Positions 5,974 through 29,906 of a stretch of DNA of 64,000 nucleotides are shown piece after piece. Below the pieces are notes generated by a model. That model did no database searches. It was not told the origin of the DNA and saw only the letters and a list, made by a program, of their open reading frames with translations. Every line of letters starts with the position of its first letter. Positions within the stretch are counted from its first letter, which is position 1. Origin of the DNA: Myxococcota bacterium (GTDB taxonomy: Bacteria > Myxococcota_A > UBA796 > GCA-2862545); contig JBCCQY010000019.1 of the NCBI GenBank assembly GCA_039208735.1, positions 1 through 64,000 of the forward strand, read 5' to 3'. A program made the position numbers and the translations under genes.

Positions 5974-6066
5974 GCACTCCCCGCAGTTGGGTTGCCAACT
6001 TCGCACAAAACAGGTCCAAAGGCGAGTGGCCGTGAAGAGAACAAGCCAGCGTGGAGCGGTGCCAGC

Positions 6067-6987
6067 GTGAGCCAATTGCAAGAGATCGAAGCCTTTGTGG
6101 CGGTTGGCGAACAGGGAAGCTTCGTTGCGGCGGCCCGGACCCTTGGGGTGTCCAGCTCCTACGCGAGCAAGCTCATCACACGGTTGGAAGAACGCCTCGG
6201 CACGAGGTTGATTCAGCGCACAACCCGGCGGTTGACGCTTACGCCGCACGGTGAGCGGTACCTGGAAGACTGCAAGGGAGCGTTCCAGCTCCTTCGAAAG
6301 GCCGAGGAGTGCATTCACGAAACCACAGTGGGGATTCGCGGAATGCTCCGGGTAACCGTGCCCACGGCACTCGGACTTGGCGTTTTAGCCGACCTCTTTC
6401 ATCGCTTCGTGGGTCGACATCCCGACGTTGAATTCCAAGTCCACTACCTGGACCGACGCGTCGACCTCATTGGTTAACGCTACGATCTCGCGGTTCGCGC
6501 AGGTCCTCTGCCCGATAGTAGCCTTCGGGCCAGGCGGATTGGCAGCTATTGCCAAGGGGTATTTGCGAGCCCTGATGTGGCCGATGCACTCGGACCCATC
6601 GACCACCCCACAGCCCTCCGGGGCGCAGCCGGGGTGGTCTACACCGGTCACCTCAAGCCGGCGGAATGGACCTTGCGCTCGGCGTCCAACGAGGCAACGA
6701 TCAGCGTCGAACCCATCATGCACGCTAACAATGGACGTGCGCTGGCCCTCGCCGCGGCCAGCGGCCTTGGCATCACCTACCTCCCCGACTTCCACACCAC
6801 CGATCTCGTCGAAGCGGGACGTCTCGTACGACTCCTTCCCGGTTGGGGCGAGGAAGTCCCCGTGCACGTGCTGTTTCCGTCCAATCGACACGTGCCGCTT
6901 CGCACCCGGACCCTCATCGACTTCTTAGCTACGGCCTTCCCGTCGTCGGGTGCCCCGAACGAGACCGCGAACGTTCACGTGCCGTGA
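6067..6987 (+). pseudogene. LysR-family regulator with in-frame TAA at 6475-6477
   Basis: GSFVAAARTLGVSSSYASKLITRLEERLGTRLIQRTTRRL HTH; the same frame continues after the stop: VDLIG*RYDLAVRAG...GLGITYLP...RTLIDFL. Confidence 0.9.
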
Positions 6988-7154
6988 TGCAAGGATTCTC
7001 GGTGCCCGTCGTACCTGCACCAGATGTTTGCTCTAACCAACGGAAACGTAAATCATGCCATTTTGGCACGCCGTCCTGATGGACCATCTCCCGACCAGGC
7101 CGGTGAACGCCGTCGAGTATCTTCACAGGGCGCCCCCTCCATCTCGAGTTCTAG

Positions 7155-10100
7155 ATGACCTGGTACGAAAGTCGGCCCCGGGAAGTGCGATGGTTGGTGT
7201 TCCTCGCGTTCTGCGTTCTGCTGATCACGCTCTTCTTCATTCCAGGCACCATCGTCGATCAAGGCCCGACGATTCGCCTTGTGGGTCACCTTGCCCCCAT
7301 CGGGCCCGGTTCCGTGGAGCGACTCACCATCGGGTCTGGCCCGTTGGCCGACCTGCGTCTCACCGAAGCACTCATTCCCGATCAGCTCGGCCACCTCGAC
7401 ATTCGACGCGGGCCAAGGGGCACGCGACTCGCGCTCGAGTACCGTCACGAGAGCCGAATGCGCGACGCGCTGCGGACCCGGCGCAGTGGTTCGGCAAGCG
7501 CAACAGACACCAACCTCAACTCCGTGTCGTTCCGCATGGAGGACGACGTACGGCTGGTCTCTGGGCTGATCGAAACCGAGGGGTCTCCGGGTGACCAGCG
7601 AGCGGTACTCAAGGCGGTCTGCGAAGACCCCGCGAGCGAAGGCACGCTGACTGTCGGAGACCCCGCCCACGACGTGACGTTCGCAACGGTAGGCCTCGTG
7701 GACGGCGAAGGCATCTGGATCCGTGACGCCGAGGCCCGCTCGCGGTCGCTTGTCCTACCCCGTCGTGAGCTTGCTTGGCGCCGAATTGGCCAGGCGACGC
7801 TGATGATGCGCGAAGCACCTCACGACCTTGAGCTGGCGTTGCTCCCTTACGATCAATTCCCTTCTGCTTGCGATGACGCATGCTTGCGGGAGCTGGCAAG
7901 GCTTGGGGAAGCCGTCCGAGGGAACTGGTTCGAATCCCCGTCTGACGCCATCATGGACCGCGTGCGGGCCGTTCCAAGTCTCGCCGACTCGGGGTCCTGG
8001 CCTGGCATGTGGCGCGTGATTGCACCTGAGAGCTTCGTCCAGGTCGGAGACGGAGCACCCCGGCCGCTGCTTCCCGCCGGTGCCCCGGCCGCCGAGTTTT
8101 CCTTCGGTCCCGCAGCGGCGAGCGTTTACACGGCCAAGGAACTCCCCGCCACAACGACAGCCGGGTTCGATGGGGCAAACCGCGTAGCAATGGCGACCTA
8201 CGACGTTCTGCAACGCATGGTCAGCCTTGTTCCCGGGGTCGACCCTCCATCGGAACTCTTGGTCACCCGGGCCAATACGGAGGGGCCATCGCTGCACGTC
8301 GTGCAGTGCGCAAACCTCGACGCCTGTGAAGAAGACTGCGTCCAGGCCGTAGGCCGACACCCCATCGCGGCAGACACCGACTGGATTGTGGCCGGGTCTG
8401 GCACCCACTACCGGCCCAAGCTCAAGGGGGACCAGATCGAACTCCGCGTGGAGGCACCGCCGAGCGGTCGGTTCCGCCTCCTCGGCAGCCTGGCCGGGGG
8501 ACGGCTCATGAGCCACAACCCCCACGTTCGAGTGCCCGAATGTCGCGACGATCAATGGCTCGTTCTCGAGGCCACGACCGATGAACGAGTGCTTTCGGAG
8601 TCGGTTGAAGAACGCACTCGGAGTCGGCTGACCCGGCCGGGCGAGCGCGTCGTGCACATTCCCCTGCCTCGATGGTTCGTGGACCTCGATCGGTTTCCGG
8701 ATGTCGCAAAGCAAGGCTACACCGCCGTCGATGCAGCTCGTCTATGCAGCGAGCCCGATGGCAGCTTGATGGTTGACGAGCGAATTCCGAGGTGGAACGG
8801 ACCTCCCGAACCGCACTTGGTGGCGGACCAATCCACCTTCGTCCTCGCCGGACACCGGTTCCAGTACTTCCAGCAAGGCCCTCGGCTCGAACAATGGCTC
8901 CCTCTGCTGGGGTTCGGGCTGCTCGTCGTCATCCAAGCCTGGCTCGCCATCCGAAGCCTCTGGGCCAGCGTACGGTCCGATGGATTTCCATGGACTCAGA
9001 TGCTCTCCATTCCCATCGCATGCGTAGCGCTGCTGATGATCATTGGAGGATTGCTGCAAATGCACATGTCCGCGAGCCAGTACCTCTTGGGCTCTCCGGA
9101 CTACATCCACCGCCACTTGGTTTCCGGCTGGGTGGCCTCTACGCTTTTGCTTGCGTTTGTCCAGCTCAATCAGACCCGTCGGACCGTCGCAGGCACCGAC
9201 GCCATCACGCTGTATCACCTGACCCGTTCCGCCCTTACCGTCGTCGCCGTCGGCGCGGCCTCCCTTGCATTGTGGGCCGCGGTGGACGCAGGAGTGTGGA
9301 TGGCCTTGGGTCCCGCTCCGGATGAACTCCAAGTCCACGAGATGGTGTACCACAACGTCAACCAAACCGTGTTGAGAGCCTGGGGGGTTGCCGGGTTGCT
9401 CGGCCTCGTGGCCGGGGGCGCCTGGCGATTTCGCGATCGACTCGCGGAGACGTTCGATCGCTGGTTCATGACCCTGCAACCTCCGTCGCTGTTCGTGACG
9501 TTGCAAACCGGTCGCGAGCCAACGTCAGACCAACCGCGAACGGGCTGGCGCGCACTCCTCTCCAGCGCGCTCGGCGTGGTCGCCGTGCACGACAACGGCA
9601 TGCTGCTTCGCGGATTGAAGTGGCTCGGTTTGGCCACCACCCTCCTTGCGGTCGGCGCGCTCCTCGATGCTCTGCTGGGCAGTCGCACATTCCTTGGCTT
9701 TGACCTCAAGCTGGCTGAATTCGCTCCCCCCATTGTTGGCGCTGGATTTGCGTCGATGCTCGCTGGCTTCAGCCAGGAGTCGTCCGGCTCGCGGCCTTGG
9801 GTCTTGCCCGCGCGAATGTTGTTTTTCACCTTGGCCATCGAGGCGTTGGTCATCGGATTTTACGGGCTGCGTTCCGACTTCGGTCCCCTGCTCGTGGTGA
9901 TTCCAAGCATCTGGGGGGTCTGCATCGTTTGGGCGTTCGAGGTGCGAAGAATCAAGCAACCACTGCAAGATCTCCGATACCGGCTTCTCGGTGTTCTTCT
10001 CGCGGTTGGCCTCTGCGGACTTGCCATCGCAGGCATTCTCTGGTTCTTCCGCGCGTCGCTTACGGAGCTACCGTTGGTGGGCGTAACCCTCGAACGCGGT

Positions 10101-10628
10101 CTAAATCGCTTTGCGACTTGGCAAAGTCCTTGGTTCACCCGACCAGGATGGTGGGCCACACGGGCACACTGGATCCTCGCTGGCTTCTACGGGGACCGCG
10201 AAGTCTTCCTGTCGAACCTCCATTCCGACCTTGCGTTCTTCGCGGTGATTCAGTCTTACGGCGTGCTCCACGGGCTCATCGTGCTCAGTCTGTACGGTGG
10301 ACTGGTGGCGTCGTTGTTGTGGTGGGGACACCGGCTCTTGGTCCTCGCAGAGGAGCGGCCCTTTTCGTTGCAGCCCAACGGCACGCGGGAGTGGAGTTCG
10401 GCCGTCGCATACTTCTCGATCTTTGCCGGCTTTTACATCCTGATGGAGGTGCTCGTCCACATCGGGACCTGCTTCAACACGGTTCCGCAAACGGGCATCA
10501 CGCTGCCTTGGGTGTCGTCGGGGGGGTCCGCGGCGACTGGGTTCGCCATCTTGGTGGGATGGGCGATGGGCGCGGTGGCCCCCGCTCACGCGGCTTTGCG
10601 CCAACCTACCCCCAGGGGGCAACGATGA
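7155..10628 (+). CDS. Giant SEDS-family (FtsW/RodA/SpoVE) peptidoglycan glycosyltransferase with an N-terminal extension of about 580 aa containing FHA-like segments
   Basis: C-terminal polytopic domain with LAEF, SDFGP, NLHSDL (catalytic-Asp motif) and PQTGITLPWVSSGGS; N-terminal TM helix followed by LTIGSGPLADLRL. Confidence 0.85.
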   Translation: MTWYESRPREVRWLVFLAFCVLLITLFFIPGTIVDQGPTIRLVGHLAPIGPGSVERLTIGSGPLADLRLTEALIPDQLGHLDIRRGPRGTRLALEYRHESRMRDALRTRRSGSASATDTNLNSVSFRMEDDVRLVSGLIETEGSPGDQRAVLKAVCEDPASEGTLTVGDPAHDVTFATVGLVDGEGIWIRDAEARSRSLVLPRRELAWRRIGQATLMMREAPHDLELALLPYDQFPSACDDACLRELARLGEAVRGNWFESPSDAIMDRVRAVPSLADSGSWPGMWRVIAPESFVQVGDGAPRPLLPAGAPAAEFSFGPAAASVYTAKELPATTTAGFDGANRVAMATYDVLQRMVSLVPGVDPPSELLVTRANTEGPSLHVVQCANLDACEEDCVQAVGRHPIAADTDWIVAGSGTHYRPKLKGDQIELRVEAPPSGRFRLLGSLAGGRLMSHNPHVRVPECRDDQWLVLEATTDERVLSESVEERTRSRLTRPGERVVHIPLPRWFVDLDRFPDVAKQGYTAVDAARLCSEPDGSLMVDERIPRWNGPPEPHLVADQSTFVLAGHRFQYFQQGPRLEQWLPLLGFGLLVVIQAWLAIRSLWASVRSDGFPWTQMLSIPIACVALLMIIGGLLQMHMSASQYLLGSPDYIHRHLVSGWVASTLLLAFVQLNQTRRTVAGTDAITLYHLTRSALTVVAVGAASLALWAAVDAGVWMALGPAPDELQVHEMVYHNVNQTVLRAWGVAGLLGLVAGGAWRFRDRLAETFDRWFMTLQPPSLFVTLQTGREPTSDQPRTGWRALLSSALGVVAVHDNGMLLRGLKWLGLATTLLAVGALLDALLGSRTFLGFDLKLAEFAPPIVGAGFASMLAGFSQESSGSRPWVLPARMLFFTLAIEALVIGFYGLRSDFGPLLVVIPSIWGVCIVWAFEVRRIKQPLQDLRYRLLGVLLAVGLCGLAIAGILWFFRASLTELPLVGVTLERGLNRFATWQSPWFTRPGWWATRAHWILAGFYGDREVFLSNLHSDLAFFAVIQSYGVLHGLIVLSLYGGLVASLLWWGHRLLVLAEERPFSLQPNGTREWSSAVAYFSIFAGFYILMEVLVHIGTCFNTVPQTGITLPWVSSGGSAATGFAILVGWAMGAVAPAHAALRQPTPRGQR

Positions 10629-13600
10629 CGCAGCTCACTCGTGTTCGCGAACTCGCGGTGTATGGAGTCGCCGCCATCGTCTTCCTCTTCGTCATCGGAT
10701 GGCTCTTTCGAACCACCCTGATCAACGGCCCCTTTGCAAACTCCTTCAGCGGACCTCGGCACTACATTCCGATCGACCAAGGAGTACGGCTGTTCTCTCT
10801 CCAAATCGATGACGAGGGTACGCGCTACGCACTCGATGCAAACCTCGATTGCATCGACGCCGAAGGCAAAGCGGTCAAGCAGCTCAGCCACAACGAGCAA
10901 ATGTACTGCGCATCGGGCAAGGCCCGCGCCGTTTTCGAGATGGACATGATCGGAGGGTCGACCGATCGGTTGTTGCTCACCGGCATGACGGTGACCATCC
11001 CGCCCGGGTCTGACGAAACGCTCGCCACCATGGGCATCGGTCGTGACAACGATGTGGTGGTGACCACGCCCGGCATGGGAGCAACGCACATCGTGCTCTT
11101 AGGCCTGGAAGCATGCGAATCCATGGCCGGCACGCGAGGGCCTGGACCCATCGTGACCTGCGTCCGGAATGACGGTCCACGAGATGGGCTCATCATCGAC
11201 TCCACGGCGAGTTGTGATGGGCCCCAGGTATACTGCGGCGACACCTTCCCGCGACGGATTGCGCTTGGTCGAGGCAGTGTGCAGGCCATTCGTGCCGGCG
11301 ACTGGCTTTGGGCCGGCCACTTGCCGTTCCAAGTCGACCAGCTCCGCGACACGCACGAGGGGCCGGAAGTCCGGTTGGCCATCCCGCATCACGACGCAGC
11401 CTGGCAGCGGATCGGCGGCGAACGTCGCTGGATGGCGCTCAGCCTTCCCCAGTGGCCCCTCTCACGCCGGATCAAGTTGGAAGAAGGCCGTGAGTACCCC
11501 GACCCACAGCGCATCCGGTTCTTCTCTCGCCGTGCGTTGTTCCGAAACGCGTTTGGTTTTTGGGTCGCCGATACGCATACCGCTGATGAAAGGATCGAGT
11601 GGCAGCTCGAAGAACACCTCCAGAAGGTGATCGACAACGAGCTGCTCTGCCTCGAAACCCCGTATCGGGCGGAGGCTAAGCTCGGGCGTCGCGACGCGTT
11701 CCCGCTTGAGTTGCGCTGGAACTTCGACCTCGGCGTGGGTTGCGACGGTCAACCTACGACTCCCCCCACCGCCCGGCTCGTGCGGCTCGCCCGCAACATG
11801 GCCAACGATCGGAGTGTTCGCGAAGCGATCGAACGGGCCAAAGCAGCCATGCGCGGCCTACCCTTCGAGGCACCCCGGCCCGAAGGACTCCCGTTGGTGT
11901 TCGATTGGGCGACCGTCGCCCACGATGACAACGGCACCGAAGTGATCGATGTCGTGCCGACCCGCCTTCTCGGCGTACATCCGCTGTCCACCCGGAACTC
12001 TCCGCGAACCACCGTGGTCAAGGCGACCGAACCCTGCGACGTCGCGAAGTCGGACGATGCGATGCCTCCAGTGTCGGTGCGCCAGCAAAGCACCTCTCCC
12101 ACCCTTTCGGTGGTTCAGGATGCAGACCGTCTGGGCCTTCGCGCTGGAACAAGCTTCCTTTTGGCGAGCCCTGCTGGATCGTTGTGCGCTGCTTTTGCGC
12201 CCGGTCGGGTGCCGATTCGCCAGGGCGGTACACTCGCGTTGGGCAACGGGCGCGTAGGCAACAAGCAGTTCACACTCGTCGAGGAGTCGATTGGCGGCTC
12301 ACGAACCGCCTGCCTGCAGTTCGCCCATCGGGACGGCGGCACCTACGTCGTCAGTGGCCCAGGAAACGGCACGGTCCGGCTCCGTCGACACGTTTCGCCC
12401 GGTGGCCTCGGAGATGTCATCGCCAGCTGGACGCAGCTCGAGGACGGCGATGTCGTTGTGCTTTCCGCCGGGAAGGCGGAGCTACATCTCGCCGCACGTG
12501 TCGACCGTCTCGACCTTGCAGCCTACAGCGTAGTCGCGGATGGAACGGTCAAGCGTCACTACCCCTTTGGGGAGGCCCTTGCGCCCCTGCTCGGCGTCCG
12601 TGGAGTGGTGCCCAAAGGGCTCGAGACATGGATTCAGCCCGAGGTGGTGGAGTCGTGGCGGGCGACGTGGCGAAACCAATGTCGAGGGGCCACCCCAAGC
12701 CACCCCGTTCCCGAAGGCGTCGATGGCATCCAGCTTACGATTCGCGGAGATCTGCAGCGCTTGGTGTATGGCGAACTCGAAGCCCGGCGCCTCCTGAGCA
12801 CGACCGAACTCGGTCTTCAAGCCGTCCTTCTCGATGGTCACACCGGTGACGTCCTCGCCGCGGCCAATGCACAGAGCTTCGACCCCAACAACATCAACGC
12901 CCTCGAAAAGCGACTGCGCGATCTTCGAGCCCTCGATGGTGGGCTTGTCCGCGTGCCCCCCGAATTCGACAACCTCGCTTTCAATCGCGACAAGCAAGTC
13001 GGCTCTGTGTACAAGCTGGCGACAAGCTACGCCATGGCGAACAGCATCGGGTTGCGGACGTTGCCGCTTCCCGAAACGGGCTGTGACCGCATTGTGTTCG
13101 CCGAAGCGTTTCGGCGGAAAGCTCCCTTGAGCCTTCGGGAATCGATCGATTGCGGAAGCGGTCGCAAATACCCCGAATCCCGAGGTGCATTCGAGGATGC
13201 CTTCCGGGGTTCGTGGAACCCGTACTTTGCGCTCGCCGCGATTCGGATGACGGACCCCAACGCGCGGGTGGAAGGACCCCTCGAGTCTGACCCAGCCCAG
13301 TGGTACATCCAGCTTTCCGACGACCTCGATCCGACCACTGCCATCGCCCTTGGTCACCCCATGGTCGACACGCTGCTGACGTTGTCGCACCGCATGCACT
13401 ACAGCATCGGCTTCCCCTACCAAGGGGCCGAGGTCATCGACGTCACCGTGGACGGAGGGGCGTCCCAACAGTGGAACTTCTCCGACACCCCACGGTGGCT
13501 GCCTGGCGTCGATCCCCAGGCGTTTTCGTACCCCTCCTTTTGGGGACCGGAACTCTACACCGTCGGGAATGGGGGCGAATGGGCCCGCGAACGTCGGAAG

Positions 13601-14464
13601 ATCGAGGTTGCAGGCATTGGTACGCGCACCACCGAGCCCCAGCACATCGCGGAGTTTGGCAAGGTCTCGTACGGTTTTGGCGGGGTGCAGGCCAGTGCCT
13701 TGTCGATGGCCGTCCTCGGAACACCGATGGTGGATGGCGCGATGCACCCTCCACGGGTCTTGGTGTTGGGTGACGAAGAGCCCTCTTCTGGCGTGCCCGT
13801 TCTGGACGAAGCGGATCGACGAACCATCCAACGTGCGATGGAGCGCGTGCTCCTCGATGGTACGGCCAGCGGCTTCTTTGGCCGCAAATGGGCTGGTCTG
13901 GGAGGCAAGACCGGCACCTACGCCATTGAGAAGCGGAAGGGACTGTCGGTTGCAAAGAGCGCCCGGGATCGCCAAATCTACGGTTGGGCCTGCGGTGCCT
14001 ACGATGCGCAAGTCGTGCCCGATGCGGTCTTAGAGACTGCCTTTTCCAAGCTGTGGCGAGGGCCTCACCGGGACCGTCTCAAACGGTGGTTTACCGAGGA
14101 GGCCTACCGCGGATTCGCCGCCGACGCGCCGTCGTGCGATCGATTGAACCCCAATCGGCCTGGCGTCTCTCGGCCCATCGAAGTCGAGCCGGGAACCATG
14201 CAGTACGGCGGCGACTGGCTCGAAGAGCACTACCGGCTTCAGCAACCCCGAAACCAGACGGTTCCTGGCAGCGCGATGCTGGTCGTGGCCTTCGACAGTG
14301 CCCAAGCGCACGACGATCCGCTACCGAAGCATGGGCTCCCTCCTGGCTGGATCCTAGCCGTGATCGCCGACGACGACGGCTCGAGTGGCGCCGCAAAATC
14401 CGCAGCTCGAAACGTCGTCCGACGACTGGGCGAGTACCTGTCGCTCCGAGACGCTGGGGAGTAG
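10625..14464 (+). CDS. Giant class B-type penicillin-binding protein (transpeptidase) with N-terminal TM helix and FHA-like domains
   Basis: ATGA overlap with the SEDS gene; RHYPFG...GLE, QLTIRGDLQ, LLDGHTGDVLAAAN; SVYK (13004-13015), SWN (13211-13219), KTG (13907-13915). Confidence 0.88.
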   Translation: MTQLTRVRELAVYGVAAIVFLFVIGWLFRTTLINGPFANSFSGPRHYIPIDQGVRLFSLQIDDEGTRYALDANLDCIDAEGKAVKQLSHNEQMYCASGKARAVFEMDMIGGSTDRLLLTGMTVTIPPGSDETLATMGIGRDNDVVVTTPGMGATHIVLLGLEACESMAGTRGPGPIVTCVRNDGPRDGLIIDSTASCDGPQVYCGDTFPRRIALGRGSVQAIRAGDWLWAGHLPFQVDQLRDTHEGPEVRLAIPHHDAAWQRIGGERRWMALSLPQWPLSRRIKLEEGREYPDPQRIRFFSRRALFRNAFGFWVADTHTADERIEWQLEEHLQKVIDNELLCLETPYRAEAKLGRRDAFPLELRWNFDLGVGCDGQPTTPPTARLVRLARNMANDRSVREAIERAKAAMRGLPFEAPRPEGLPLVFDWATVAHDDNGTEVIDVVPTRLLGVHPLSTRNSPRTTVVKATEPCDVAKSDDAMPPVSVRQQSTSPTLSVVQDADRLGLRAGTSFLLASPAGSLCAAFAPGRVPIRQGGTLALGNGRVGNKQFTLVEESIGGSRTACLQFAHRDGGTYVVSGPGNGTVRLRRHVSPGGLGDVIASWTQLEDGDVVVLSAGKAELHLAARVDRLDLAAYSVVADGTVKRHYPFGEALAPLLGVRGVVPKGLETWIQPEVVESWRATWRNQCRGATPSHPVPEGVDGIQLTIRGDLQRLVYGELEARRLLSTTELGLQAVLLDGHTGDVLAAANAQSFDPNNINALEKRLRDLRALDGGLVRVPPEFDNLAFNRDKQVGSVYKLATSYAMANSIGLRTLPLPETGCDRIVFAEAFRRKAPLSLRESIDCGSGRKYPESRGAFEDAFRGSWNPYFALAAIRMTDPNARVEGPLESDPAQWYIQLSDDLDPTTAIALGHPMVDTLLTLSHRMHYSIGFPYQGAEVIDVTVDGGASQQWNFSDTPRWLPGVDPQAFSYPSFWGPELYTVGNGGEWARERRKIEVAGIGTRTTEPQHIAEFGKVSYGFGGVQASALSMAVLGTPMVDGAMHPPRVLVLGDEEPSSGVPVLDEADRRTIQRAMERVLLDGTASGFFGRKWAGLGGKTGTYAIEKRKGLSVAKSARDRQIYGWACGAYDAQVVPDAVLETAFSKLWRGPHRDRLKRWFTEEAYRGFAADAPSCDRLNPNRPGVSRPIEVEPGTMQYGGDWLEEHYRLQQPRNQTVPGSAMLVVAFDSAQAHDDPLPKHGLPPGWILAVIADDDGSSGAAKSAARNVVRRLGEYLSLRDAGE

Positions 14465-14470
14465 CTCGAC

Positions 14471-19800: not shown

Positions 19801-20751
19801 ATCCAGGTGATCGCCACTGGTGGGATCGCACGAGGCGGACGAGACATCGACTTGGCGTTCCTTTGGGCGGCGGGTGACTTGTCAAGGCCTCGCCATCCGA
19901 ACCTCACGCTGGAACGCCTGGCCACGGACGGAGAGCGCCTGCGCATGCGGGCCGCGATGGAGCACTACAAGAAGCTCGCCGCAGCAGGAGAATTGGACAA
20001 GCCCATCGAGCTGACCATTGCGGGCGCAGAGCGAGAGTTGTTCTTGAACCGCCGGGTCCACGATCTCGCGCACCACATGCAGGTCCGAAACCGGACGTGG
20101 GAGCTGGCCACGGTGCCCTTGTTGGCCGCGGCGGGTCGACTGCCCGCTCCTGTGGCCTTGACCGAGGTGATCCTGACCGGTCGGGCCTCTCGCACCTACT
20201 GCCTGGCGGCCAACGTCCAGTCGGCGCTCAAGCACATGACGCCCGAATCGGTAACCGTGCGACTCGCTGAGGCTCCCATGCTCAAGGCCGCCGTGTCGTT
20301 GGGTGCGCGCCAGCATGCGATCGGCTTGGGCAATTTCACCACGAGCAACCAAGTGTTTCGAGACCGGCTGATCTACGTCTGGCGCGATGCCCGGCGGAGA
20401 GTCCACGCCACTGAGTTGTCGCCGGCCTGGCGGAGCGTGCCCCCGGACGGCCTGGACATCGAGGTTGAGCTGGCCGAGTCTCGGGAGGCTCGCATTTTCC
20501 GCACCTGGGTGGGGCTTCCTGCTTCCATGGATGCCACGGGTCCCACGATCCAGCGTCCCCGGATGGACGTGCGGGATCTCGAGCGACTGCTGAACGGCGA
20601 AGGCGGTCCCCCGTGGGCGGTCGAAGGCATTCACCCGGTCCCGTTTGAGATGGGGAGCTTGCGCTGGCGACGGAATGTCGGTCAACGCCGCACCGCACGC
20701 GTGCGGATCCACATGGACGCCAACCAACGCGTCGACATTGGAGCAGTCTGA
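16840..20751 (+). CDS. Single-pass membrane protein with extracytoplasmic N-terminal domain and C-terminal Hsp70/actin-like ATPase domain (degenerate motifs)
   Basis: Signal-like start MIWTLASLAFAAP; TM LIIIGGLLAALATLGLLV; CIDFGASAT, ATVPN, AEAEAVA, VLDVGASSSD, GGRDID, ILTGRASR, KAAVSLGA. Confidence 0.8.
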   Translation: MIWTLASLAFAAPLCPADAPKPTLHVVLWERRLPDKPGPFGRHLAKMREAFISHCNSSMVQGDLVSVFPEGLTQGRAEALHRRFERLGEGDYGAVYQLLERVGALARIGDADPLDPVHLVLDETSCETLNAEVYETINRPMLRGSQQLGDEASAWANPRAQRAVSHPELMVHHAFVQAQTHWRNEGILDKACHLPYDLTLSIVGPGGRSYEVNRADSRILDDYGSRALAYFHHLHQALYNTGIERELDGYRTSSRVALLDEAGLDHDPRNGAAWRSEDGSWNPLFWTDPKGEPLEVDFTGKLPVSLWFKHLPPATLTVPDGVSLWEVDATITRNGVPVVNVPVEQVDRQLVLNLDSARSDLLDSYTWSDPLVGALVSHVTVVRTAGGEDLPPFLVADPLEVLPAPPVRVGVYFYTTTELIIIGGLLAALATLGLLVRAIFYQPRRLAAELRWRTQDAPWLVEDDLIDLEKLQDATEFARESTIALRDPFSSRWVPGRRGQFTIRVARRSFVQAQLPLRDHEGFQNLTGAHWTATGANGLRTQVEGVPSSRLDRQLALQVVTRHDRIDHAQIADLEGVLEGREHLSVVLEVDVQVEDALGHFEPVHTVLYKALRLRSVRGQPQPIATVQVDDEGRYVALPIDRPEEGPFGAIILQNPVRRSCVTLPVHWTIQNAQAVMASEDGTVECHDVPVRMLIHRELVAAHSFVQDCAETSEVIQLALLHPPDVLAEASPKQWTVKVSVPVSWHVVGQPHAAHHQTLTAQYRLWDPELARAVCIDFGASATRILLQDPDPHEYGYLPMAHGIEGIEPMDFPAEAFLHEDDQVTLPPHARHVAEPGRLVESIKHAILGNTASNDLHQALERVVKALLESRLARRLQTDPEVLTPTGGRRTLEPGPRHLVVATVPNEAPPAYRQSLVNGIQASEVLADREVQILAEAEAVALWRAGQILGETNAEQAPFHLLVLDVGASSSDAAVVRVVPHLYEPPEIQVIATGGIARGGRDIDLAFLWAAGDLSRPRHPNLTLERLATDGERLRMRAAMEHYKKLAAAGELDKPIELTIAGAERELFLNRRVHDLAHHMQVRNRTWELATVPLLAAAGRLPAPVALTEVILTGRASRTYCLAANVQSALKHMTPESVTVRLAEAPMLKAAVSLGARQHAIGLGNFTTSNQVFRDRLIYVWRDARRRVHATELSPAWRSVPPDGLDIEVELAESREARIFRTWVGLPASMDATGPTIQRPRMDVRDLERLLNGEGGPPWAVEGIHPVPFEMGSLRWRRNVGQRRTARVRIHMDANQRVDIGAV

Positions 20752-22889
20752 TGAGGGAGCTGCTGGCCCAGCTACAGCAGTGGCTGTCTGGGGTCATTTC
20801 AACGTTCAACCACCTGATATTCGAGCAGGCTCCGCAACTCGAACAAAAAATCGACCCCGATGAGCAAGACACGTCCCCTCGACTCGAGGCGTTGCCCCCG
20901 CGGCCCTCCCTGCAAGGGGCCCTGGCCGCGGCCCGTCCCGATGATGGGCAGCAACACGCCGGTCTACAGCTGTGTGTGGACTTCGGGACGAGCGCAAGTG
21001 CAGTGGCCCTCGCTCGCGACGAAGACGGGTACGAGCTGGCCAACCTCGACGTCGAAGACGCCTCCAACGGTTTTCGACCACGGCAGACGGTGGATTCCGT
21101 ATTCGCACTTCCGCACGATCGAAACAGTCCGGACGGTGCGGTCATCGGACGACTCGCCGCTCAGCTCCGAAACAACCCTCTCGGCAGCCACTACGACTTT
21201 TACCAATCGCTGAAACGCCGCCTGTCGGATGACGAACGTGGCGATGACCACACCCCCGAATTCCTTTTGGACATCCAAGTCGCGATCGAGGAGCTGCTGT
21301 GGTTGGCCCTCTACCCGAAGAATTCGGCCACCCTCCGTTTTGCACGTGAGCATCTCAACTTGCGTACAGAGTACGTCGAGGCGCTGGATACCTACATCGG
21401 CTTGCAAGGCGACTACCAGGTCGATGAACTGCAAGACGGCGTGGCCCTCCATCTCGCTGTGCCCAACGCGTTTGGGGCATACGAGTGCCGCATTCTCAAG
21501 AACGCTGCCGGACGGGCCCTTGAGAACGTGCTGCGTCGACTCACCCAGGTGTGTGAATGGCCCGAGGTTCCTTTCCAGACCGAACCTCACCTGATTCGTG
21601 AGGCCGAGGCCGTGGTTTGGTGGGAGCATCGGTTCCGACGTGAAGCGGGGGAAGTGCGCGACCCCACGATGCCATCCGAGCACTGGCTCGTCTTCGACGT
21701 GGGAGGAGGCAGCACCGACGCAGCCATCGTGCTGGTGGAACACTCGGAAGGGGTCTCGGTCCAGACGGTTCGCCACTCGGGCGTGGCCCTCGGGGGGAAC
21801 GACGTCGACGAACTGATGCTCGCGACGATGGCGGCGCAGGACATGGAACCCGGCGATGATGTCAACATCCATGCGACAAAGTTGGTTGGCAACACCCCCC
21901 ACGGTCGAGGATGGCTTCTGCTCGATTACCAAGGCCGAAAAGTTCGTTGGGCCAAGGGAATGGCCAACGATCTTAAAGGCCAGACCAAAGAGGTGCTGCA
22001 GGAGTGGAGCCGCTGGATTCGCGAGGTGGTCACGGGCCGCCGTCATCGAGGAAAGGAAGAGCCGGTCAAGCCGGTTGGCGGATTGGTGACACCATTCGAG
22101 CCTCCGGGGAGCACCCGGGTCCAACTCGAACACCAGGACTACGGACCTCGACTCGCCCAGTACTTTAGAGCCACCGTCTGTGCGCTCCTCGACGACCTAT
22201 TCGAGAGCCGCCACGACGAACAAGGCCAGATCGACGCCCCCATCGCCCGCGTGGTGATCTCGGGACGCGGCTCGCTGCTGCCGGGGTTGAAGGACGCGGT
22301 GGTGAACTACCTGCTCCAGCGGCAGCTGATTCGGGACGCCGACCAGGTTGCCTACGCGTCAGCCGACGAGGGAGCGGTGGTGGCCGACGCCCTGAAGCTG
22401 GCCTGCGTCAAGGGAATCTGGGAGGCGTCGATGGCTCCCAACCGGCACATGCTTCACTTTGTGAACCAGGAGATCACCTACACCGCGCTGCAAGGGGATA
22501 ACAAGATTCCCATCTGGAAACATGGTTCGCGACTGACCCCTGACTCGAAGGCCCGAGCGGTGATTCATCGAACCTTTCGGCGACCACAGATATGGCGGTT
22601 CTACCAGCATCGTTTCCCGCGCACCATGGAGCGGTACTTCCCGGACGGCTCGCGGTGGGGCGGCTTCCGCGTGATCGGAACACACCGCCTGCAGCGCTAC
22701 GGGGAGGACGATGAGGCGTACCTCATCGAATTCGACTGTGCCGAATGGACCCTCGGTCTTTGGAACATCACCGACCTGCGACAGCCGCAGTGGGTCCAGA
22801 TGGGTCAGAGAAAGGGTGCCTTCAAATCGAAGAACAACCCCATTTCCCAATTGAGGTGGGGCTGGCGCTGGGAAGGGGAGCGAACATGA
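20751..22889 (+). CDS. Soluble Hsp70-family (actin-fold) ATPase-like protein
   Basis: CVDFGTSASAVA, SLKRRL, LAVPN, REAEAV, FDVGGGSTDAA, GGNDVD, ISGRGSLLPG, KLACVKG; 1-nt overlap with the previous gene. Confidence 0.85.
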   Translation: MRELLAQLQQWLSGVISTFNHLIFEQAPQLEQKIDPDEQDTSPRLEALPPRPSLQGALAAARPDDGQQHAGLQLCVDFGTSASAVALARDEDGYELANLDVEDASNGFRPRQTVDSVFALPHDRNSPDGAVIGRLAAQLRNNPLGSHYDFYQSLKRRLSDDERGDDHTPEFLLDIQVAIEELLWLALYPKNSATLRFAREHLNLRTEYVEALDTYIGLQGDYQVDELQDGVALHLAVPNAFGAYECRILKNAAGRALENVLRRLTQVCEWPEVPFQTEPHLIREAEAVVWWEHRFRREAGEVRDPTMPSEHWLVFDVGGGSTDAAIVLVEHSEGVSVQTVRHSGVALGGNDVDELMLATMAAQDMEPGDDVNIHATKLVGNTPHGRGWLLLDYQGRKVRWAKGMANDLKGQTKEVLQEWSRWIREVVTGRRHRGKEEPVKPVGGLVTPFEPPGSTRVQLEHQDYGPRLAQYFRATVCALLDDLFESRHDEQGQIDAPIARVVISGRGSLLPGLKDAVVNYLLQRQLIRDADQVAYASADEGAVVADALKLACVKGIWEASMAPNRHMLHFVNQEITYTALQGDNKIPIWKHGSRLTPDSKARAVIHRTFRRPQIWRFYQHRFPRTMERYFPDGSRWGGFRVIGTHRLQRYGEDDEAYLIEFDCAEWTLGLWNITDLRQPQWVQMGQRKGAFKSKNNPISQLRWGWRWEGERT

Positions 22890-25303
22890 CCGTCTGGATC
22901 ATCTTCACATTGGCCCGAACGTCGACGGCGTCCGAGCCTGGGATCCTGGCCGCTTTCCAGCGACTCCCGGGGGAGCAAGGCTCTCGGTTCGTGAACACCA
23001 CGTACGGACAGGAGGTCGTCTCGCCACTCGTCCAGACGCTCAATCCCAACGACTGCGAGGGGGAGGCCTGGGCGGTCGGCGACCCCCAAACCCCTGCGTT
23101 CGTCGGTGAACAAACCGAGGATTCGGGTCCCGCCTCCCTCGATGAGTGGTCCTGGTGCGAGGACCCCGCGAGGCCCTTCCCCTTGTTTGTCGGTCACCTG
23201 AGCGTCCAGGTTGCCCCGCCCGAAGGGCGAAAGCTTGATGCTGTCCTCACCGAAGCGTTGGCTCCCTACGTGGGAATCCGAAAGGTGTGGGAGCACGGCT
23301 TTTACTCGGTCGTCAGCAAATCCTTGGTCAACGAGCGCCTGCCCTGTTCGCTTTCAGGGTCCCCTTCGCGCAATTCGGTGGCCCCCCTCAGTGCCACCAA
23401 ACGACATGGTCTGGATTCCCAAGAGCCCTTGCTGGTGGGCTGGTTCCGAGCCGATGCGAGCCCATGGTGCGAGGTGTGGCTCGACGCCCGCAGCGATCGG
23501 CCACGCCTCTACTCGCTTGATAGCGCCTGCGCCGTCGAGCAATCCGACGGGCGAGCGACCATCACCGGCGAACTCCAACTGTTCGACATGTCGCGCAGGC
23601 CCTCTCAGCTGTGCGAGCAGCCACCGGACAAAACTAAAGGTCCAAGGCCGCACTTCTTGGTTCAGTCGACCATCGACATCGAATGGCGTGCCCACCCTGA
23701 GCCCGCCCGCGCCTTTTGGTTGTGGGTGCTGCTCGGCCTCATCCTCGTCGGAATCGCGGGGGCCGCCGGTTACAGACTCTTCAAGTCCTGGAACTCGCGG
23801 AGCAAAACGGCACCGTCGGGCTCTGGGTCGTCAGGATTTGACACCACGCCCGCGATGGACCTTCGCGCATGGATCGAAGTCCTCTGGGCCGAACTGCATG
23901 CCGATCGTCAGCGCGAGTTTCGTTCGCTCAAGGACGATCGAATGGGCGTTTCCCGCTGGGTCATGGACGAGCACTCCCCCGGGCGAAGGCTGCGGGAGGC
24001 CTTTGAGGAACGAATGAAAACCCCCTTCGGGGGCCGCCCCCCCGAAGGCTGGACACAGGCCCTCGAAGTGATCCATGACAGCCCACCCTTTGATGGAAAA
24101 TGGACCGATGACCACTGGAATGCTGCTCTGTGCATGGTCCTAGCCGGGTTGAAGAGCGATGCGGATCCGGGCCGCGGCTACGCGGACGTTCCTGACGCGC
24201 TCCACGTCGTGATGACGTTCTTTTGGGATCAAACCCCTCTTCCCGATCAAAGCGCTCGCGCACACGATGCGGTTCCCAGGCTTCTTCGTCACTTCGAGGC
24301 GCTTCAGCTTACCGACAAGGAGCCGCACGACTCGTTCCCCCAACGCCGATCCACGGTCGTCAATCGGCCTCCGCCCGACCTCCTCGACGAAGACGAGGAG
24401 GAGGACGACGAAAATACGCAGCAGTTGGACAGTGCGCAGGTCGCTCGACTGAGCCAACACCAAGAGGTGCAGGAATTCCGCACCATCTTGCGCAATGTTC
24501 GTCAACACCCAAAGGTCCAGGAGTTGCTGTCCAAGGTCCGCCGAGCCTGTAGCGAAGGCAACCTACAAATGATCTTGGAAGCGGAGAAACTCCTCCGGGA
24601 GAGCGACCGTTACCTAGATAAAGTCAACGGAAGCAGAATCCGGAAAGGCTCACCGTACCATGTGAAGTGGTTGCAGCGACACGAGACCCTGACGACCGGG
24701 CTGACGGATATCGAGACCTTTGTGAAGGCCATCCCGGTAGCGCTCACAGGGCAGGACTTCGACGGTGCCTTCGCCGATCTCCTTCGTACCGAGTTTCAGT
24801 ATCAGCCGAAGCCTCGTCCAGACCTCGAAAGTCGAGGCATTGCGATTTGGAAGGAACTTTGCGGGCGAATCCAGGACACCCCCCGACCTGATGAAGGCGA
24901 CAGTTCCGCAAAGAACCTGTTGCAACAGATTTACGATCGCTTCTTCCTTCCTTGGTTTCATGTTGCTCAATTCATGCAGTATTCGCTCCGCAACGAAGTT
25001 CCCAAGATGAGAAAGGGAACACCTAGTGACCACGTTGGCCTCCTCAACCAGTACGTCGCAAGGTTCGGCTACGAGTTCATGCGCATCCCGCTCTATGACG
25101 GCGAGCGAAAACAGAGCCACTACGCCGGAACAGACATGATGCAAAAACCTACCGAGCCGAGACAGTGGTACGAAGGACTAAGCAACGCTCCCCGGTTCGA
25201 ATCCGGAACGGTGATTTGGGTCGAAACGCCCAAACACATCCAATCACCGCTAGGCTACCTTGAACCCGGAACATTCCTCTACTTGGCTCCTCAAGCTTCG
25301 TGA
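22886..25303 (+). CDS. Single-pass membrane protein; C-terminal domain paralogous to the next gene (possibly GrpE-like)
   Basis: ATGA overlap; Cys-containing N-terminal domain; TM FWLWVLLGLILVGIAGAAGY; acidic linker DEDEEEDDE. Confidence 0.75.
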   Translation: MTVWIIFTLARTSTASEPGILAAFQRLPGEQGSRFVNTTYGQEVVSPLVQTLNPNDCEGEAWAVGDPQTPAFVGEQTEDSGPASLDEWSWCEDPARPFPLFVGHLSVQVAPPEGRKLDAVLTEALAPYVGIRKVWEHGFYSVVSKSLVNERLPCSLSGSPSRNSVAPLSATKRHGLDSQEPLLVGWFRADASPWCEVWLDARSDRPRLYSLDSACAVEQSDGRATITGELQLFDMSRRPSQLCEQPPDKTKGPRPHFLVQSTIDIEWRAHPEPARAFWLWVLLGLILVGIAGAAGYRLFKSWNSRSKTAPSGSGSSGFDTTPAMDLRAWIEVLWAELHADRQREFRSLKDDRMGVSRWVMDEHSPGRRLREAFEERMKTPFGGRPPEGWTQALEVIHDSPPFDGKWTDDHWNAALCMVLAGLKSDADPGRGYADVPDALHVVMTFFWDQTPLPDQSARAHDAVPRLLRHFEALQLTDKEPHDSFPQRRSTVVNRPPPDLLDEDEEEDDENTQQLDSAQVARLSQHQEVQEFRTILRNVRQHPKVQELLSKVRRACSEGNLQMILEAEKLLRESDRYLDKVNGSRIRKGSPYHVKWLQRHETLTTGLTDIETFVKAIPVALTGQDFDGAFADLLRTEFQYQPKPRPDLESRGIAIWKELCGRIQDTPRPDEGDSSAKNLLQQIYDRFFLPWFHVAQFMQYSLRNEVPKMRKGTPSDHVGLLNQYVARFGYEFMRIPLYDGERKQSHYAGTDMMQKPTEPRQWYEGLSNAPRFESGTVIWVETPKHIQSPLGYLEPGTFLYLAPQAS

Positions 25304-25402
25304 TGCACGCGCGCCATGCGTCATGGAGCACGCCCATCCCCCCCTGGGCCATCGGAGCCCGGCATGTCCTTTTCTTGACCCCTCAAGGCCGCTGAATCGA
25401 CC

Positions 25403-26983
25403 ATGCACACACGAATCTCTATCGATCCCGATCATGTTTCCCGAGCCATTGGCGGCACCGGTTTTGCAAGAAATGCCTCCCCTTTGGGGTCGGCTGGCGT
25501 TACCGAAAGCATCCTCGTGCATCGCGGAGACTTTCCCGACCGCCACTCCATCGTCTACATTTTTCCTTATGCCAATACGCCCTTTGAGGAGTGGATCAAC
25601 GACGCGTTCGAGTTTGAGGCTGCTGCCTGGCGTGCATACTGGACGGAACTCGAAGTCGCCCTCGAGCTGTTTCGTGCCCCGGCCCCCGGAGCACCACCCC
25701 AAGCCCCCGTCCTGACCGCCGTGCCGCTCCTTGGAGACCTCGAAACGGCGATCTTTCGCGCCAACTACACGCCGCTAGGCAGCGAAGCTTCCTTGCCCAT
25801 GTTGGTTCGACCCTACGTCGAGTGGCCACAAGCGGAGTCGCTCGCAGAACTGCGAGGGGAAGCTGCGATTGCAAAGCTCCACGGGCTCCTAAATCGCATC
25901 TGGGCCCGTCTTCATCAAGAAGGCTATCTTCCAAGTCCAACCGAGCATCTCTCGTTGGATTCGTTGGCCGAGGGCTTTGCTGAGCCGTGGCATCTCCTAA
26001 GCGATGGCGACCAAGTGGTGCCCACACAGTTTCGCTTGTTTCATGCTGACTTTCGACGCATTCGACGCAATCGAGCTCGGCCTCGCCACATCAATACCCA
26101 GCCAGTTCAAAGGTCTTCATCGCCCGGGCCTTACACCTCCGCCTCATCCCTTGGCCCAGACGGCGACTTCCTGGCGGATACCGTTCGCGGAATCGATAGC
26201 CACTCGGTGTTCAAGGACACGATTTCGGAGATCATGGCACTGTCGAACCGGATTCTTCGGGATGCCCAACGAACCGTCGCTACGAGTCAACGTCTTCGGG
26301 AGCATGGCCAGCGGGGAACCCTGCAATCAGCCATGGCCTACCTCGGCGAGTGGGAAAGACAAGAAAACCTGCTTCGGCGTGGTCTCAATCTGCTGACGGT
26401 GTTCATGACCGGCGCCGCGAAACTCATCGACCGGCCGGGTAGCATCGAAGACCGTGTGCAATCGGTCATGCAACTTCCCGAGTACCAAAGCGTTCAAAGC
26501 CCCGATTCCACGAGATGGAAGCCAGGTTTCCAAGCTTGGAAACTGCTCTGCTCTAAAATCCCCGCCGCCCCTCGGCCAGACGGCGGAGCCGCCGCAGGCC
26601 ATCAAGCCCAGGGTGGGATGTTCCGCCAAATCGTCCAGCCTTGGATAGCGCTTGCGCAATTCCTCGAAGAAGCGCTACCGGTTGAGGTGCCCGTGCTGCC
26701 AAGAACCGATCCGGGTCACCAGAGCACCGCTCAACACGTCGCGAGTGCGCTGGGCTTTGAAGTTTCGCCCATTCCCTTGTACCACCCCACGCGCGTAGCC
26801 AGCCATTACGAAGGTACCAATATCGATATCCAACCGGCACCGCCGGGCACCGTGTTTCACGACCTTCCTGCTCATCCGACGACCCACGACGGAGCCGTGG
26901 TCCGGGTGCAATTCCCCCACCTCATGCGCGCACCGTCGGGACAAGGGCAACCCTCGAGGATCTGGGTACTCCATTCGGGATGA
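25403..26983 (+). CDS. Hypothetical protein with the same C-terminal domain as the upstream gene (possibly GrpE-like)
   Basis: 526-aa ORF; shared WK.LC..I...PRPD, PW...AQF, IPLY, SHY.GT and G.V..V..P motifs. Confidence 0.75.
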   Translation: MHTRISIDPDHVSRAIGGTGFARNASPLGSAGVTESILVHRGDFPDRHSIVYIFPYANTPFEEWINDAFEFEAAAWRAYWTELEVALELFRAPAPGAPPQAPVLTAVPLLGDLETAIFRANYTPLGSEASLPMLVRPYVEWPQAESLAELRGEAAIAKLHGLLNRIWARLHQEGYLPSPTEHLSLDSLAEGFAEPWHLLSDGDQVVPTQFRLFHADFRRIRRNRARPRHINTQPVQRSSSPGPYTSASSLGPDGDFLADTVRGIDSHSVFKDTISEIMALSNRILRDAQRTVATSQRLREHGQRGTLQSAMAYLGEWERQENLLRRGLNLLTVFMTGAAKLIDRPGSIEDRVQSVMQLPEYQSVQSPDSTRWKPGFQAWKLLCSKIPAAPRPDGGAAAGHQAQGGMFRQIVQPWIALAQFLEEALPVEVPVLPRTDPGHQSTAQHVASALGFEVSPIPLYHPTRVASHYEGTNIDIQPAPPGTVFHDLPAHPTTHDGAVVRVQFPHLMRAPSGQGQPSRIWVLHSG

Positions 26984-27528
26984 AGGCTCGGGTCCCGTGG
27001 CCGATGGCTGCGGTGGAGGTTCGGATGGATCCGTCCCGACCCGTGGTCCACTACCTGGATGCGCCAACGGCCCCCGCCATCCCGGCGTCCGGCTGGCTCG
27101 CGATGCGCCTGTACGGCCAGCCCCCATGGCGTCCTCGGGCCGTTCCCGCCCCCTGCGTGCGATGGTGGAGCCCTCCGCTCGCGGGTCCTGTGATCGCCTA
27201 TGTGGTTGCGTCGGCCTTGGGGATCGAACGACCCAGGGTGGACTTCGATCACCCGACCCTTCGTGATTGGATCCGAGCCAGATATGAACTGGAGAACGGT
27301 CGCCTTGTCGAAGCTCGTCGGCTTGCGCGCCGGGTCGTTGCAGACTGGCCGGACTGGGCCCCAGGCTGGGTTCTCCTCGAGGCCGTAGCCCACCAGATCC
27401 CAGGCGACTCCCAGACCGAAGCCTACCGCCGAGGCCGGGGCCGCCACACGGACTGTGGGTTCGCCATGGGCTGCGGACCGTTCGAAATGACCATGAAGCC
27501 CTCCCCGATCGCCAAAATGCTCCAGTAA
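26980..27528 (+). CDS. Hypothetical protein with a C-terminal TPR-like helix pair
   Basis: ATGA overlap; GRLVEARRLARRVVADWPDWAPGWVLLEAV. Confidence 0.55.
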   Translation: MKARVPWPMAAVEVRMDPSRPVVHYLDAPTAPAIPASGWLAMRLYGQPPWRPRAVPAPCVRWWSPPLAGPVIAYVVASALGIERPRVDFDHPTLRDWIRARYELENGRLVEARRLARRVVADWPDWAPGWVLLEAVAHQIPGDSQTEAYRRGRGRHTDCGFAMGCGPFEMTMKPSPIAKMLQ

Positions 27529-27536
27529 GCCAGGAG

Positions 27537-28322
27537 CTACCTACGACGAGGAACCGAAACGATGAGGCCCAGGCCAGGGCTTCGGTTCACGTTGGGGACC
27601 AACGAAACAGAAGCGCGCTTCTTCGAAGACCCCCGGCGCGCCAATAGCACGAAGGTGCTGACCGTAGCGACGACCGCAACACCGGCAGAGAGGTCGGCGG
27701 CCAGTGCGCGACGGGATTGGCGCCTCACAAAGGGCTCCGCTTCGCTATCGCAGAGCACGTCGCCCCCTGGCAAGGTGTTGCTGCAATAGGTGAGCGCTTC
27801 GCGTTCGGCACGCTCCGACAGGATTCCCAACGTGGCCGCACTGACCGTCGACACCGCAGCCGTCGCCCCGAGCGTAACGATCGGCCACACCGGGCGAGCT
27901 TCGATAGGTTCAACCTCCAACGGCACCGAGGCGGAGGCTTCGGCCTCGCGAGCCTCCTCCAGCCGCTCGAGGCGACGCAACCGCTCCTCCACCGCAACGA
28001 CGTCGTGGGCTTCTCCCGAGGCCAGGTACTCTCGATAGTATTGGATGGCCTGCGGATAGTCCGGAAGCCGCTCGTAGGCGTTGGCCATGTTGTAGAGCAA
28101 CTGCGGCCGAGGGCTTAGGTCGTAGGCCTCACGAAACCGGGCAATCGCTTCTGGGTAACGGCCCGCTTCGTAGTGGGACGCTCCTTCGAGATAGGCGGCC
28201 AGCGCTTGTTTCTCCACATCATCGCGTTCACCGACTTCCGGATTTGGATCTTCCTGCGCGTGCGCAGGCCCGGCCACCAGCCATGCGGACATCAGCACCA
28301 ACAGCGTCACGGGGTCTCCCAT
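27537..28322 (-). CDS. Secreted/membrane TPR protein (myxobacterial type)
   Basis: Signal peptide ending AHA; YEAGRYPEAIARFREAYDLSPRPQLLYNMANAYERL; hydrophobic C-terminal helices. Confidence 0.8.
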   Translation of the reverse strand: MGDPVTLLVLMSAWLVAGPAHAQEDPNPEVGERDDVEKQALAAYLEGASHYEAGRYPEAIARFREAYDLSPRPQLLYNMANAYERLPDYPQAIQYYREYLASGEAHDVVAVEERLRRLERLEEAREAEASASVPLEVEPIEARPVWPIVTLGATAAVSTVSAATLGILSERAEREALTYCSNTLPGGDVLCDSEAEPFVRRQSRRALAADLSAGVAVVATVSTFVLLARRGSSKKRASVSLVPNVNRSPGLGLIVSVPRRR

Positions 28323-29833: not shown

Positions 29834-29906
29834 ATCGCCCCGTTTCGTGGTAGGACCGAGGCCGGATGCGGGTTTCAGCCGCACCGAACGATGGGGAGTC
29901 TGCACG

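Follow-up and report, generated by a model that had tools for sequence, protein, structure and literature searches.

The core synthases of the bacterial cell wall, which are also the main antibiotic targets, are pairs of a SEDS protein and a class B penicillin-binding protein (bPBP), and the known controllers of such pairs are MreB or FtsA scaffolds or circuits of kinases and FHA domains. In the actinobacterial cluster fhaA-fhaB-pstP-rodA-pbpA-pknA-pknB, a SEDS-bPBP pair is encoded together with FHA domains. The main text of PMC12516126 reports enlarged SEDS proteins whose beta-rich regions face outward, bPBPs that lack a recognizable pedestal, and SEDS-transpeptidase fusions beside FtsW-FtsI; its Pedobacter example is flanked by a kinase and a phosphatase. 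The main text of PMC7159879 describes GAP1-N2 GTPase-centric conflict systems that contain HSP70 and GrpE, sometimes a second HSP70, and membrane-proximal components. Here we analyzed a window of 64,000 nucleotides (nt) from a Myxococcota bacterium (assembly GCA_039208735.1, contig JBCCQY010000019.1, positions 1 to 64,000; source genome G000, 9.4 Mb, 93% complete), in which an operon at positions 7155-27528 combines a giant SEDS-bPBP pair with Hsp70-type proteins and predicted GrpE-like proteins. We conclude that the operon is a real, conserved, and rare system, in which known enzymes stand in an architecture absent from the literature searched. An earlier note on this DNA had proposed it as a candidate undescribed system, and no description of a SEDS-bPBP, Hsp70, and GrpE system was found in the full-text literature searched (most subscription papers and supplements lay outside this search).

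The operon consists of eight + strand open reading frames, g1 to g8. Its coordinates and all seven junctions (five overlaps, four of 4 nt and one of 1 nt, and two gaps, of 6 and 99 nt) are exactly those that the earlier note had given for eight co-oriented genes. Codon-position GC content fits coding in the operon genes, with values of 0.63-0.77 at third positions (GC3) and 0.43-0.57 at second positions (GC2). Contigs of a related strain, obtained in a second study, span 30 of 30 bins of the operon. When g2, g4, and g6 were compared with this strain, 34 of the 40 listed substitutions (220 in total) were synonymous, with 25% expected by chance. Apart from the paralogy of g6 and g7, every operon gene family is single-copy in the source genome. 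A promoter scan of positions 6800-7300 yielded 0 sites. As the earlier note had noticed, the eight genes include no mreBCD or dcw genes: family scans for elongasome and divisome partners (mreBCD-rodZ and ftsA/Z/Q/L) found none among them, and the dcw cluster (FtsI, MurE/F/D/C, MraY, FtsW, and FtsZ) is located on contig C91.

The first two genes encode the SEDS-bPBP pair. The g1 gene (7155-10628, +) encodes a giant, divergent SEDS glycosyltransferase-like protein of 1157 residues with 11 hydrophobic segments, in which an N-terminal transmembrane segment is followed by an extramembrane region of ~550 residues, probably periplasmic, and then by the SEDS core. The protein matches PF01098 with E 2.4e-5 (24 bits in one scan and 27 bits in another, cut-off 26.4), and its homologs score 34-36 bits against this family. 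A search of the PDB with the g1 family profile returned only RodA plus one weaker chance row (E 0.028). The C-terminal 350 residues of g1 align with FtsW of the same genome, and D1025 (nt 10227-10229) falls on the FtsW aspartate. In SEDS proteins, the large outer loop carries a conserved Asp with a catalytic role; D1025, which is retained in 8 of 9 family rows, would be its counterpart in g1.

The g2 gene (10625-14464, +) encodes a giant bPBP of 1279 residues with one N-terminal transmembrane segment, two FHA-like domains, and a transpeptidase domain with long insertions; a transglycosylase domain is absent. It matches PF00905 (E 1.7e-10), and the PDB matches of its family profile are led by FtsI/PBP2 (E 3e-15). 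The motifs S794-x-x-K797, S863-x-N865, and K1095-T-G are well conserved, with S794, T1096, and G1097 found in 10 of 10 rows and K797, S863, N865, and K1095 in 9 of 10. For the pedestal (PBP dimerization) domain, no Pfam match was obtained in 10 of 10 g2-family members, and the stretch preceding the transpeptidase aligns with FtsI. The catalytic residues of both families are retained at 25-40% identity. With these matches and residues, the SEDS-bPBP assignment of the earlier note holds, and in most carriers the pair is, as judged from sequence, probably an active synthase.

The pair resembles RodA-PBP2 and FtsW-FtsI in the adjacency of the two genes, in the SEDS Asp, in the SxxK, SxN, and KTG motifs, and in its best PDB matches (RodA and FtsI/PBP2). 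It differs from them in that g1 and g2 are two to three times longer and carry FHA-like outer domains, and in that the operon has Hsp70- and GrpE-like partners in place of mreBCD or dcw genes. With the giant proteins of PMC12516126 it shares the enlarged SEDS protein, a bPBP with no Pfam match for a pedestal, and the coexistence of fusions with FtsW-FtsI, whereas the main text of that paper never mentions Hsp70, FHA, or Myxococc-. In a second family-library scan, both g1 and g2 fell far below the family cut-offs. Since the family lies at or under annotation cut-offs, surveys of wall synthases miss members like g1-g2, which are nearly invisible to standard annotation.

The FHA-like domains were detected by profile-profile comparison against FHA domains of the same genome. 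The domain in g1 (7272-7574, +; probability 74-80%) is degenerate, with GR changed to GS, and those in g2 cover residues ~117-247 (95%) and ~510-640 (84%). Control windows from g3 and g4 scored <2%, and the L058 homolog of g2 exceeds the PF00498 cut-off. The similarity in g1 and g2 is a profile match at the level of the fold, and the phosphothreonine motifs GR, S-x-x-H, and N are altered. Placed after the first transmembrane segment, the domains are probably periplasmic, judging by hydrophobicity alone. Like the actinobacterial fhaA-pknB cluster, the operon has an accessory SEDS-bPBP pair together with FHA, and kinases adjoin some loci of this family (G297). In contrast to that cluster, the FHA-like domains are fused, degenerate, and apparently on the outer face, and the operon has Hsp70 and GrpE-like genes instead of a phosphatase or an active kinase.

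The system was found in 12 genomes or loci (G000, G102, G405, G297, G222, G404, G097, G440, G044, G495, G671, and metagenome locus L117), with L116, L118, and L119 counted as near copies of G102 and G440. The genes for SEDS, PBP, and g5 form one co-oriented run in 10 of the 12. By part, g5 is present in all 12 loci, the GrpE-like domain and the N-terminal domain of g7 in 11 each, g3 in 10, and g4 with its ATPase domain in 6; L117 stops before the genes for the GrpE-like and g7 N-terminal domains, and the match to the latter in G671 is weak. Of the 154 genomes of the order, 8 were identified by both the g5 and the SEDS profile and none by just one of the two. One further SEDS profile match, located in a 1087-codon frame of G419, is probably the other type of SEDS-PBP fusion, that of contig C42 described below, because the SEDS alignment included the genome's FtsW and fusion. 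Used alone, the g5 profile matched 2 of 301 genomes of the phylum of G495. One of them, G671, was absent from all input alignments and is therefore a cleaner test of co-occurrence: it contains SEDS, PBP, g5, GrpE-like, and g7 N-terminal parts in this order. Among the metagenome loci found via the PBP profile, all 4 have g3, and the 3 that are long enough have g5. The joint occurrence of SEDS-PBP and Hsp70-like genes in other genomes, which the earlier note had proposed to check, is thus borne out. Viral contigs contained no close relative and gave one weak DnaK-like match.

Several neighboring genes were seen in these loci. Upstream of the SEDS gene, there are three Ser/Thr kinase genes in G297, and in G222 (L046:10993-16098) a subtilase-LysM gene and a gene for a 1019-residue membrane protein, with related genes in G404. 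In G297 (L056:11886-20093, L115, and L044), three GrpE-like genes and an NACHT-LRR gene are located downstream of the operon.

Both ATPases, which the earlier note had described as Hsp70/actin-fold proteins, are Hsp70-type, but two Hsp70s together with two GrpE-like proteins do not make up the core of the system. The core gene is g5 (20751-22889, +), which encodes a soluble Hsp70-type ATPase of 712 residues. The accessory gene g4 (16840-20751, +) encodes a single-pass membrane protein of 1303 residues with a probable signal peptide, an extracytoplasmic domain, a transmembrane segment at 418-436, and a cytoplasmic Hsp70-type ATPase domain (nt ~19147-20334). In the PDB, g5 matched Hsp70/Hsc70 (E 7e-9), and the g4 matches were led by DnaK (E 1e-6); both proteins matched Hsp70/DnaK before other actin-fold proteins, the one actin row having E 0.24. 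Compared with the Hsp70s of the source genome, g4 and g5 gave a 99% profile match across 351-361 columns. The nucleotide motifs of g5 are complete, with D77, T80, K155, E284, D316, G320, D323, K397, and G505 invariant in the 15-16 rows that cover each residue, some of which are near copies. Whole-protein alignments of g4 and g5 run in register to 453-470 columns, into the substrate-binding sandwich; the short C-terminal beta region of g5 is in register with this sandwich and too short for a lid. In a tree with eight Hsp70s of the host, g4 and g5 fall into two supported groups of their own, distinct from the host proteins and on long branches. A vWA assignment for the outer domain of g4 was rejected (score 16.0, within controls).

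The predicted nucleotide exchange partners are g6 and g7. The g6 gene (22886-25303, +) encodes a single-pass membrane protein of 805 residues with a probable signal peptide, an extracytoplasmic domain, a transmembrane segment at 276-294, a cytoplasmic helical bundle, and a GrpE-like head (nt ~24551-25291). The g7 gene (25403-26983, +; 526 residues) encodes an N-terminal domain and a C-terminal GrpE-like domain (26150-26983, +), in which a helical bundle is followed by a GrpE-like helix-loop-helix and beta head (nt 26570-26980). The g6 protein is paralogous to this C-terminal domain (E 3e-24). Among 1.84 billion proteins, the domain family has 60 representatives at E <=0.001, two of them evidently spurious; a hydrophobic segment is present in 30 of the 44 long representatives. 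One relative, P0046, has 3834 residues, contains the GrpE-like domain twice, and matches nothing in Pfam.

AlphaFold2 modeled the 277-residue g7 domain as a helical bundle with a small beta head (predicted local distance difference test [pLDDT] score 95.6) and the last 137 residues alone with a pLDDT of 94.1. The GrpE hypothesis for g6 and g7 was formed before the isolated head was used in a fold search. In this search, GrpE, GrpE, and GrpEL1 took ranks 1-3 of 48,161 chains (Z 5.2, 5.1, and 4.5), with 111-115 of 137 residues aligned at a root-mean-square deviation of 5.2-6.8 Å; all other rows aligned <=68 residues. Foldseek placed GrpE in 9 of the top 10 rows for the head (E 0.06-0.74, none significant alone). 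GrpE was found with the isolated head only; a search with the whole 277-residue domain returned helical bundles and no GrpE. At the sequence level, PF01025 gave no Pfam match for g6, g7, or 50 of 60 relatives scanned. One further GrpE profile run gave 14.9 vs shuffles of up to 11.2 (two shuffles left out), and an Atlas feature search listed GrpE at 0.79, which is a lead only. The C-terminal head of g6 and g7 is therefore predicted, on the basis of the model, to have a GrpE-like fold. The two GrpE-like proteins of the earlier note are supported by this fold ranking but not, above controls, by the sequence profiles.

Compared with DnaK-GrpE, the operon has an Hsp70 with complete nucleotide motifs and a predicted GrpE-like head. 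Unlike DnaK-GrpE, it has no J protein and no helical lid, it has membrane anchors with outer domains, the GrpE stalk is replaced by an intramolecular bundle in the predicted g7 model, and g4 and g5 stand in clades of their own. It resembles the GAP1-N2 systems, as described in the main text of PMC7159879, in its dedicated HSP70 and GrpE, the occasional second HSP70, and its membrane-proximal parts. In contrast, no GTPase, GAP1, or FNIII-DnaJ protein was detected in the operon, and the main text of that paper never mentions FtsW or transpeptidase. SrfB-type loci were considered as another comparison and rejected: no SrfB or SrfC row of Pfam or NCBIfam was obtained for g1-g8 at E 0.1.

We propose, as an evenly balanced proposition, that the operon encodes an accessory peptidoglycan synthase together with a dedicated Hsp70-GrpE cycle that gates it. 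The starting points are the gene order, families, residues, co-occurrence, and separate FtsW-FtsI genes that we observed and the predicted GrpE-like fold; the steps from sensing to synthesis are those that we infer. The g1 and g2 proteins would polymerize and cross-link peptidoglycan as an accessory pair, and g5 would be their Hsp70 switch, on which g6, membrane-anchored and predicted to be GrpE-like, would drive nucleotide exchange. In the periplasm, the FHA-like domains of g1 and g2 may come together with the outer domains of g6 and g4 to sense a site or to mark it. The g6 protein would then free ADP from g5, and from g4 where it is present, so that g5 would drop a client (g3, the g7 N-terminal domain, or a cytoplasmic loop of g1) and thereby assemble or free the synthase. 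In this model, the ATPases form a chaperone clamp and no filament of the MreB/FtsA type. More likely than a use in routine growth would be the conditional, local patching or reinforcement of the wall.

It is possible, though doubtful, that the operon represents a third class of SEDS-bPBP machine, in which a transmembrane receptor with a GrpE-type tail converts an outside cue into ADP release from a private Hsp70 and so into local synthesis, under the control of neither an actin-like filament nor phosphorylation. Its ancestor would possibly have been a kinase-FHA cluster, in which both the FHA and the kinase parts then went dead. The third analog of the elongasome and divisome put forward in the earlier note fits the enzymes, but the control would be Hsp70-like with a GrpE partner, not MreB/FtsA-like. 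If true, the coupling of a SEDS-bPBP pair to an Hsp70 of its own and a membrane-anchored GrpE-like protein would add a new way of controlling wall synthesis and put the Hsp70 cycle to a new use, as a signal transducer.

A number of observations weigh against a synthase gated by an Hsp70-GrpE cycle. The SEDS gene is apart from the PBP gene in G440 and in G097, and in the latter the system is split in three places. Most of the sequences behind the co-occurrence profiles came from the very genomes that were counted, and related genomes are not independent. G297 has a further g5 copy that has no adjacent SEDS or PBP gene and is located beside FHA, MotA/ExbB-like, and probable kinase genes. The substrate-binding tails of g4 and g5, taken alone, score at chance against Hsp70. 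No J-domain co-chaperone was found by Pfam among the eight operon genes, so that a J protein of the host, or some other trigger, would be required for ATP hydrolysis. The GrpE fold match is weak in absolute terms (Z ~5, root-mean-square deviation >5 Å, and Foldseek E >0.05), and GrpE sequence profiles scored 13.5-15.6 against the g6/g7 domain, within shuffled or real-sequence controls. Finally, the operon of G044 is otherwise intact but encodes, at L048:4030-11586, a family member of 2519 residues in which SEDS and PBP are fused, the Asp is lost, and the motifs read SxxH, AxN, and RTG. The operon is still kept with these degenerate active sites, suggesting that catalysis may be dispensable there.

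Because the usual task of Hsp70 with GrpE is protein folding, the proteins might instead fold and assemble a large synthase that is then constitutively active, with no transmembrane signal. The size of g1-g3 and their many insertions, the dispensability of g4 (6 of 12 loci), and the 14 of 44 long g6/g7-family members without a hydrophobic segment are consistent with such an assembly aid. A folding helper would, however, have no need of the large, variable extracytoplasmic domains of g6 and g4, and eight further frames of the Hsp70 family, along with two GrpE matches, are present in the source genome. We consider this explanation unlikely.

It is equally improbable that the operon is a device for defense, kin discrimination, or predation, triggered by contact or attack, with the Hsp70 cycle setting the threshold and the SEDS-bPBP pair building a barrier, making a non-standard glycan, or serving as a wall-binding scaffold. 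Such a role would fit a rare, patchy, and fast-evolving system (see the counts for the order and the other phylum above), the three GrpE-like gene copies with an NACHT-LRR gene behind them in G297, the catalytically degenerate version in G044, and the HSP70 plus GrpE of conflict systems proposed in the main text of PMC7159879. It is opposed by the conservation of the wall-synthesis residues (8-9 of 9-10 rows). Moreover, family scans of the operon detected neither effector nor toxin domains, PADLOC yielded two weak partial rows, for g5 only, and the viral contigs held no close relative.

The accessory status of the pair was assessed from the other wall genes. The operon genes are not the only SEDS and bPBP genes of the source genome, which has FtsW-FtsI in its dcw cluster and a second accessory wall synthase, a SEDS-transpeptidase fusion of 1060 residues on contig C42 (L049:10886-14065), followed by a kinase-domain gene. 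SEDS matches in frames of similar length were found in G102, G202, G282, and G419. The separate housekeeping synthases that the earlier note had proposed to look for are present as FtsW-FtsI; RodA and MreB were not found by profile search in this 93% complete genome. MreB was not found in G297 either; across the order it was detected in 143 of 154 genomes, 6 of the 8 operon carriers among them. Most genomes of the order have MreB, often in two copies, yet 9 of 10 operon-free controls, one of them a single-contig genome (G152), have a single canonical SEDS gene and thus MreB apparently without RodA; the absence of RodA is common in the order. With MreB in 6 of 8 carriers and one SEDS gene in 9 of 10 controls, the operon does not track elongasome loss. 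In G044 and G495, two canonical SEDS genes exist in addition to the operon, and a profile search found the operon in 0 of 4 same-genus genomes; together, these results indicate an accessory role. Thus, it is very unlikely that the pair substitutes for an absent RodA-PBP2 and the Hsp70-like proteins for MreB, as might be suspected from the missing RodA and MreB in G000 and MreB in G297, given the carriers with MreB, the operon-free controls, the additional SEDS genes of G044 and G495, and the incompleteness of G000.

The remaining parts of the operon are less well defined. The g3 gene (14471-16843, +) encodes a protein of 790 residues with no hydrophobic segment and no match in Pfam, the PDB, or Atlas. 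It is located downstream of the PBP gene in 10 of 12 loci (three direct matches, the others by position and alignment) and is possibly a cytoplasmic scaffold or Hsp70 client. A word-index search with g1 returned g1 itself only. The N-terminal domain of g7 (25403-26092, +) belongs to a conserved family of ~210 residues that is encoded by a separate gene in 10 other loci, showing that g7 is a fusion of two normally separate genes; a g7-type fusion recurs in P0040 and P0066. By eye the domain looks like a dead protein kinase, a reading that the controls do not support: its kinase profile scores of 17.3-18.0 exceed shuffles (<=13.0), but real-sequence controls reach 19.0. Its alignment with kinase subdomains I-VII is colinear over 136-196 columns and not above 41 real-sequence windows. 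The GC content dips to 0.58 vs ~0.63 at positions 24001-26000, in the g6/g7 region, and the lowest GC3 is that of g7. The last gene, g8 (26980-27528, +), encodes 182 residues with one weak TPR (PF13428, E 0.002, under the cut-off). No g8 homologs were found in 8 related stretches scanned, which places g8 outside the conserved system, in contrast to the eight-gene system of the earlier note.

Just upstream of the operon, at 5992-6987, the reading frame of a LysR regulator ends at 6477 with only the start of the substrate domain, and a second frame in the same phase runs on after this stop to 6987. An in-frame stop may thus have disrupted the LysR gene. At the other end, genes for a Ser/Thr kinase and a TPR protein (27537-29917, -) converge on the operon; this pair was not seen at the equivalent position in the related loci examined. 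Farther away, the window encodes a ricin-type lectin-domain protein (31508-34048, -) and a family 3 glycoside hydrolase (2381-3388, -).

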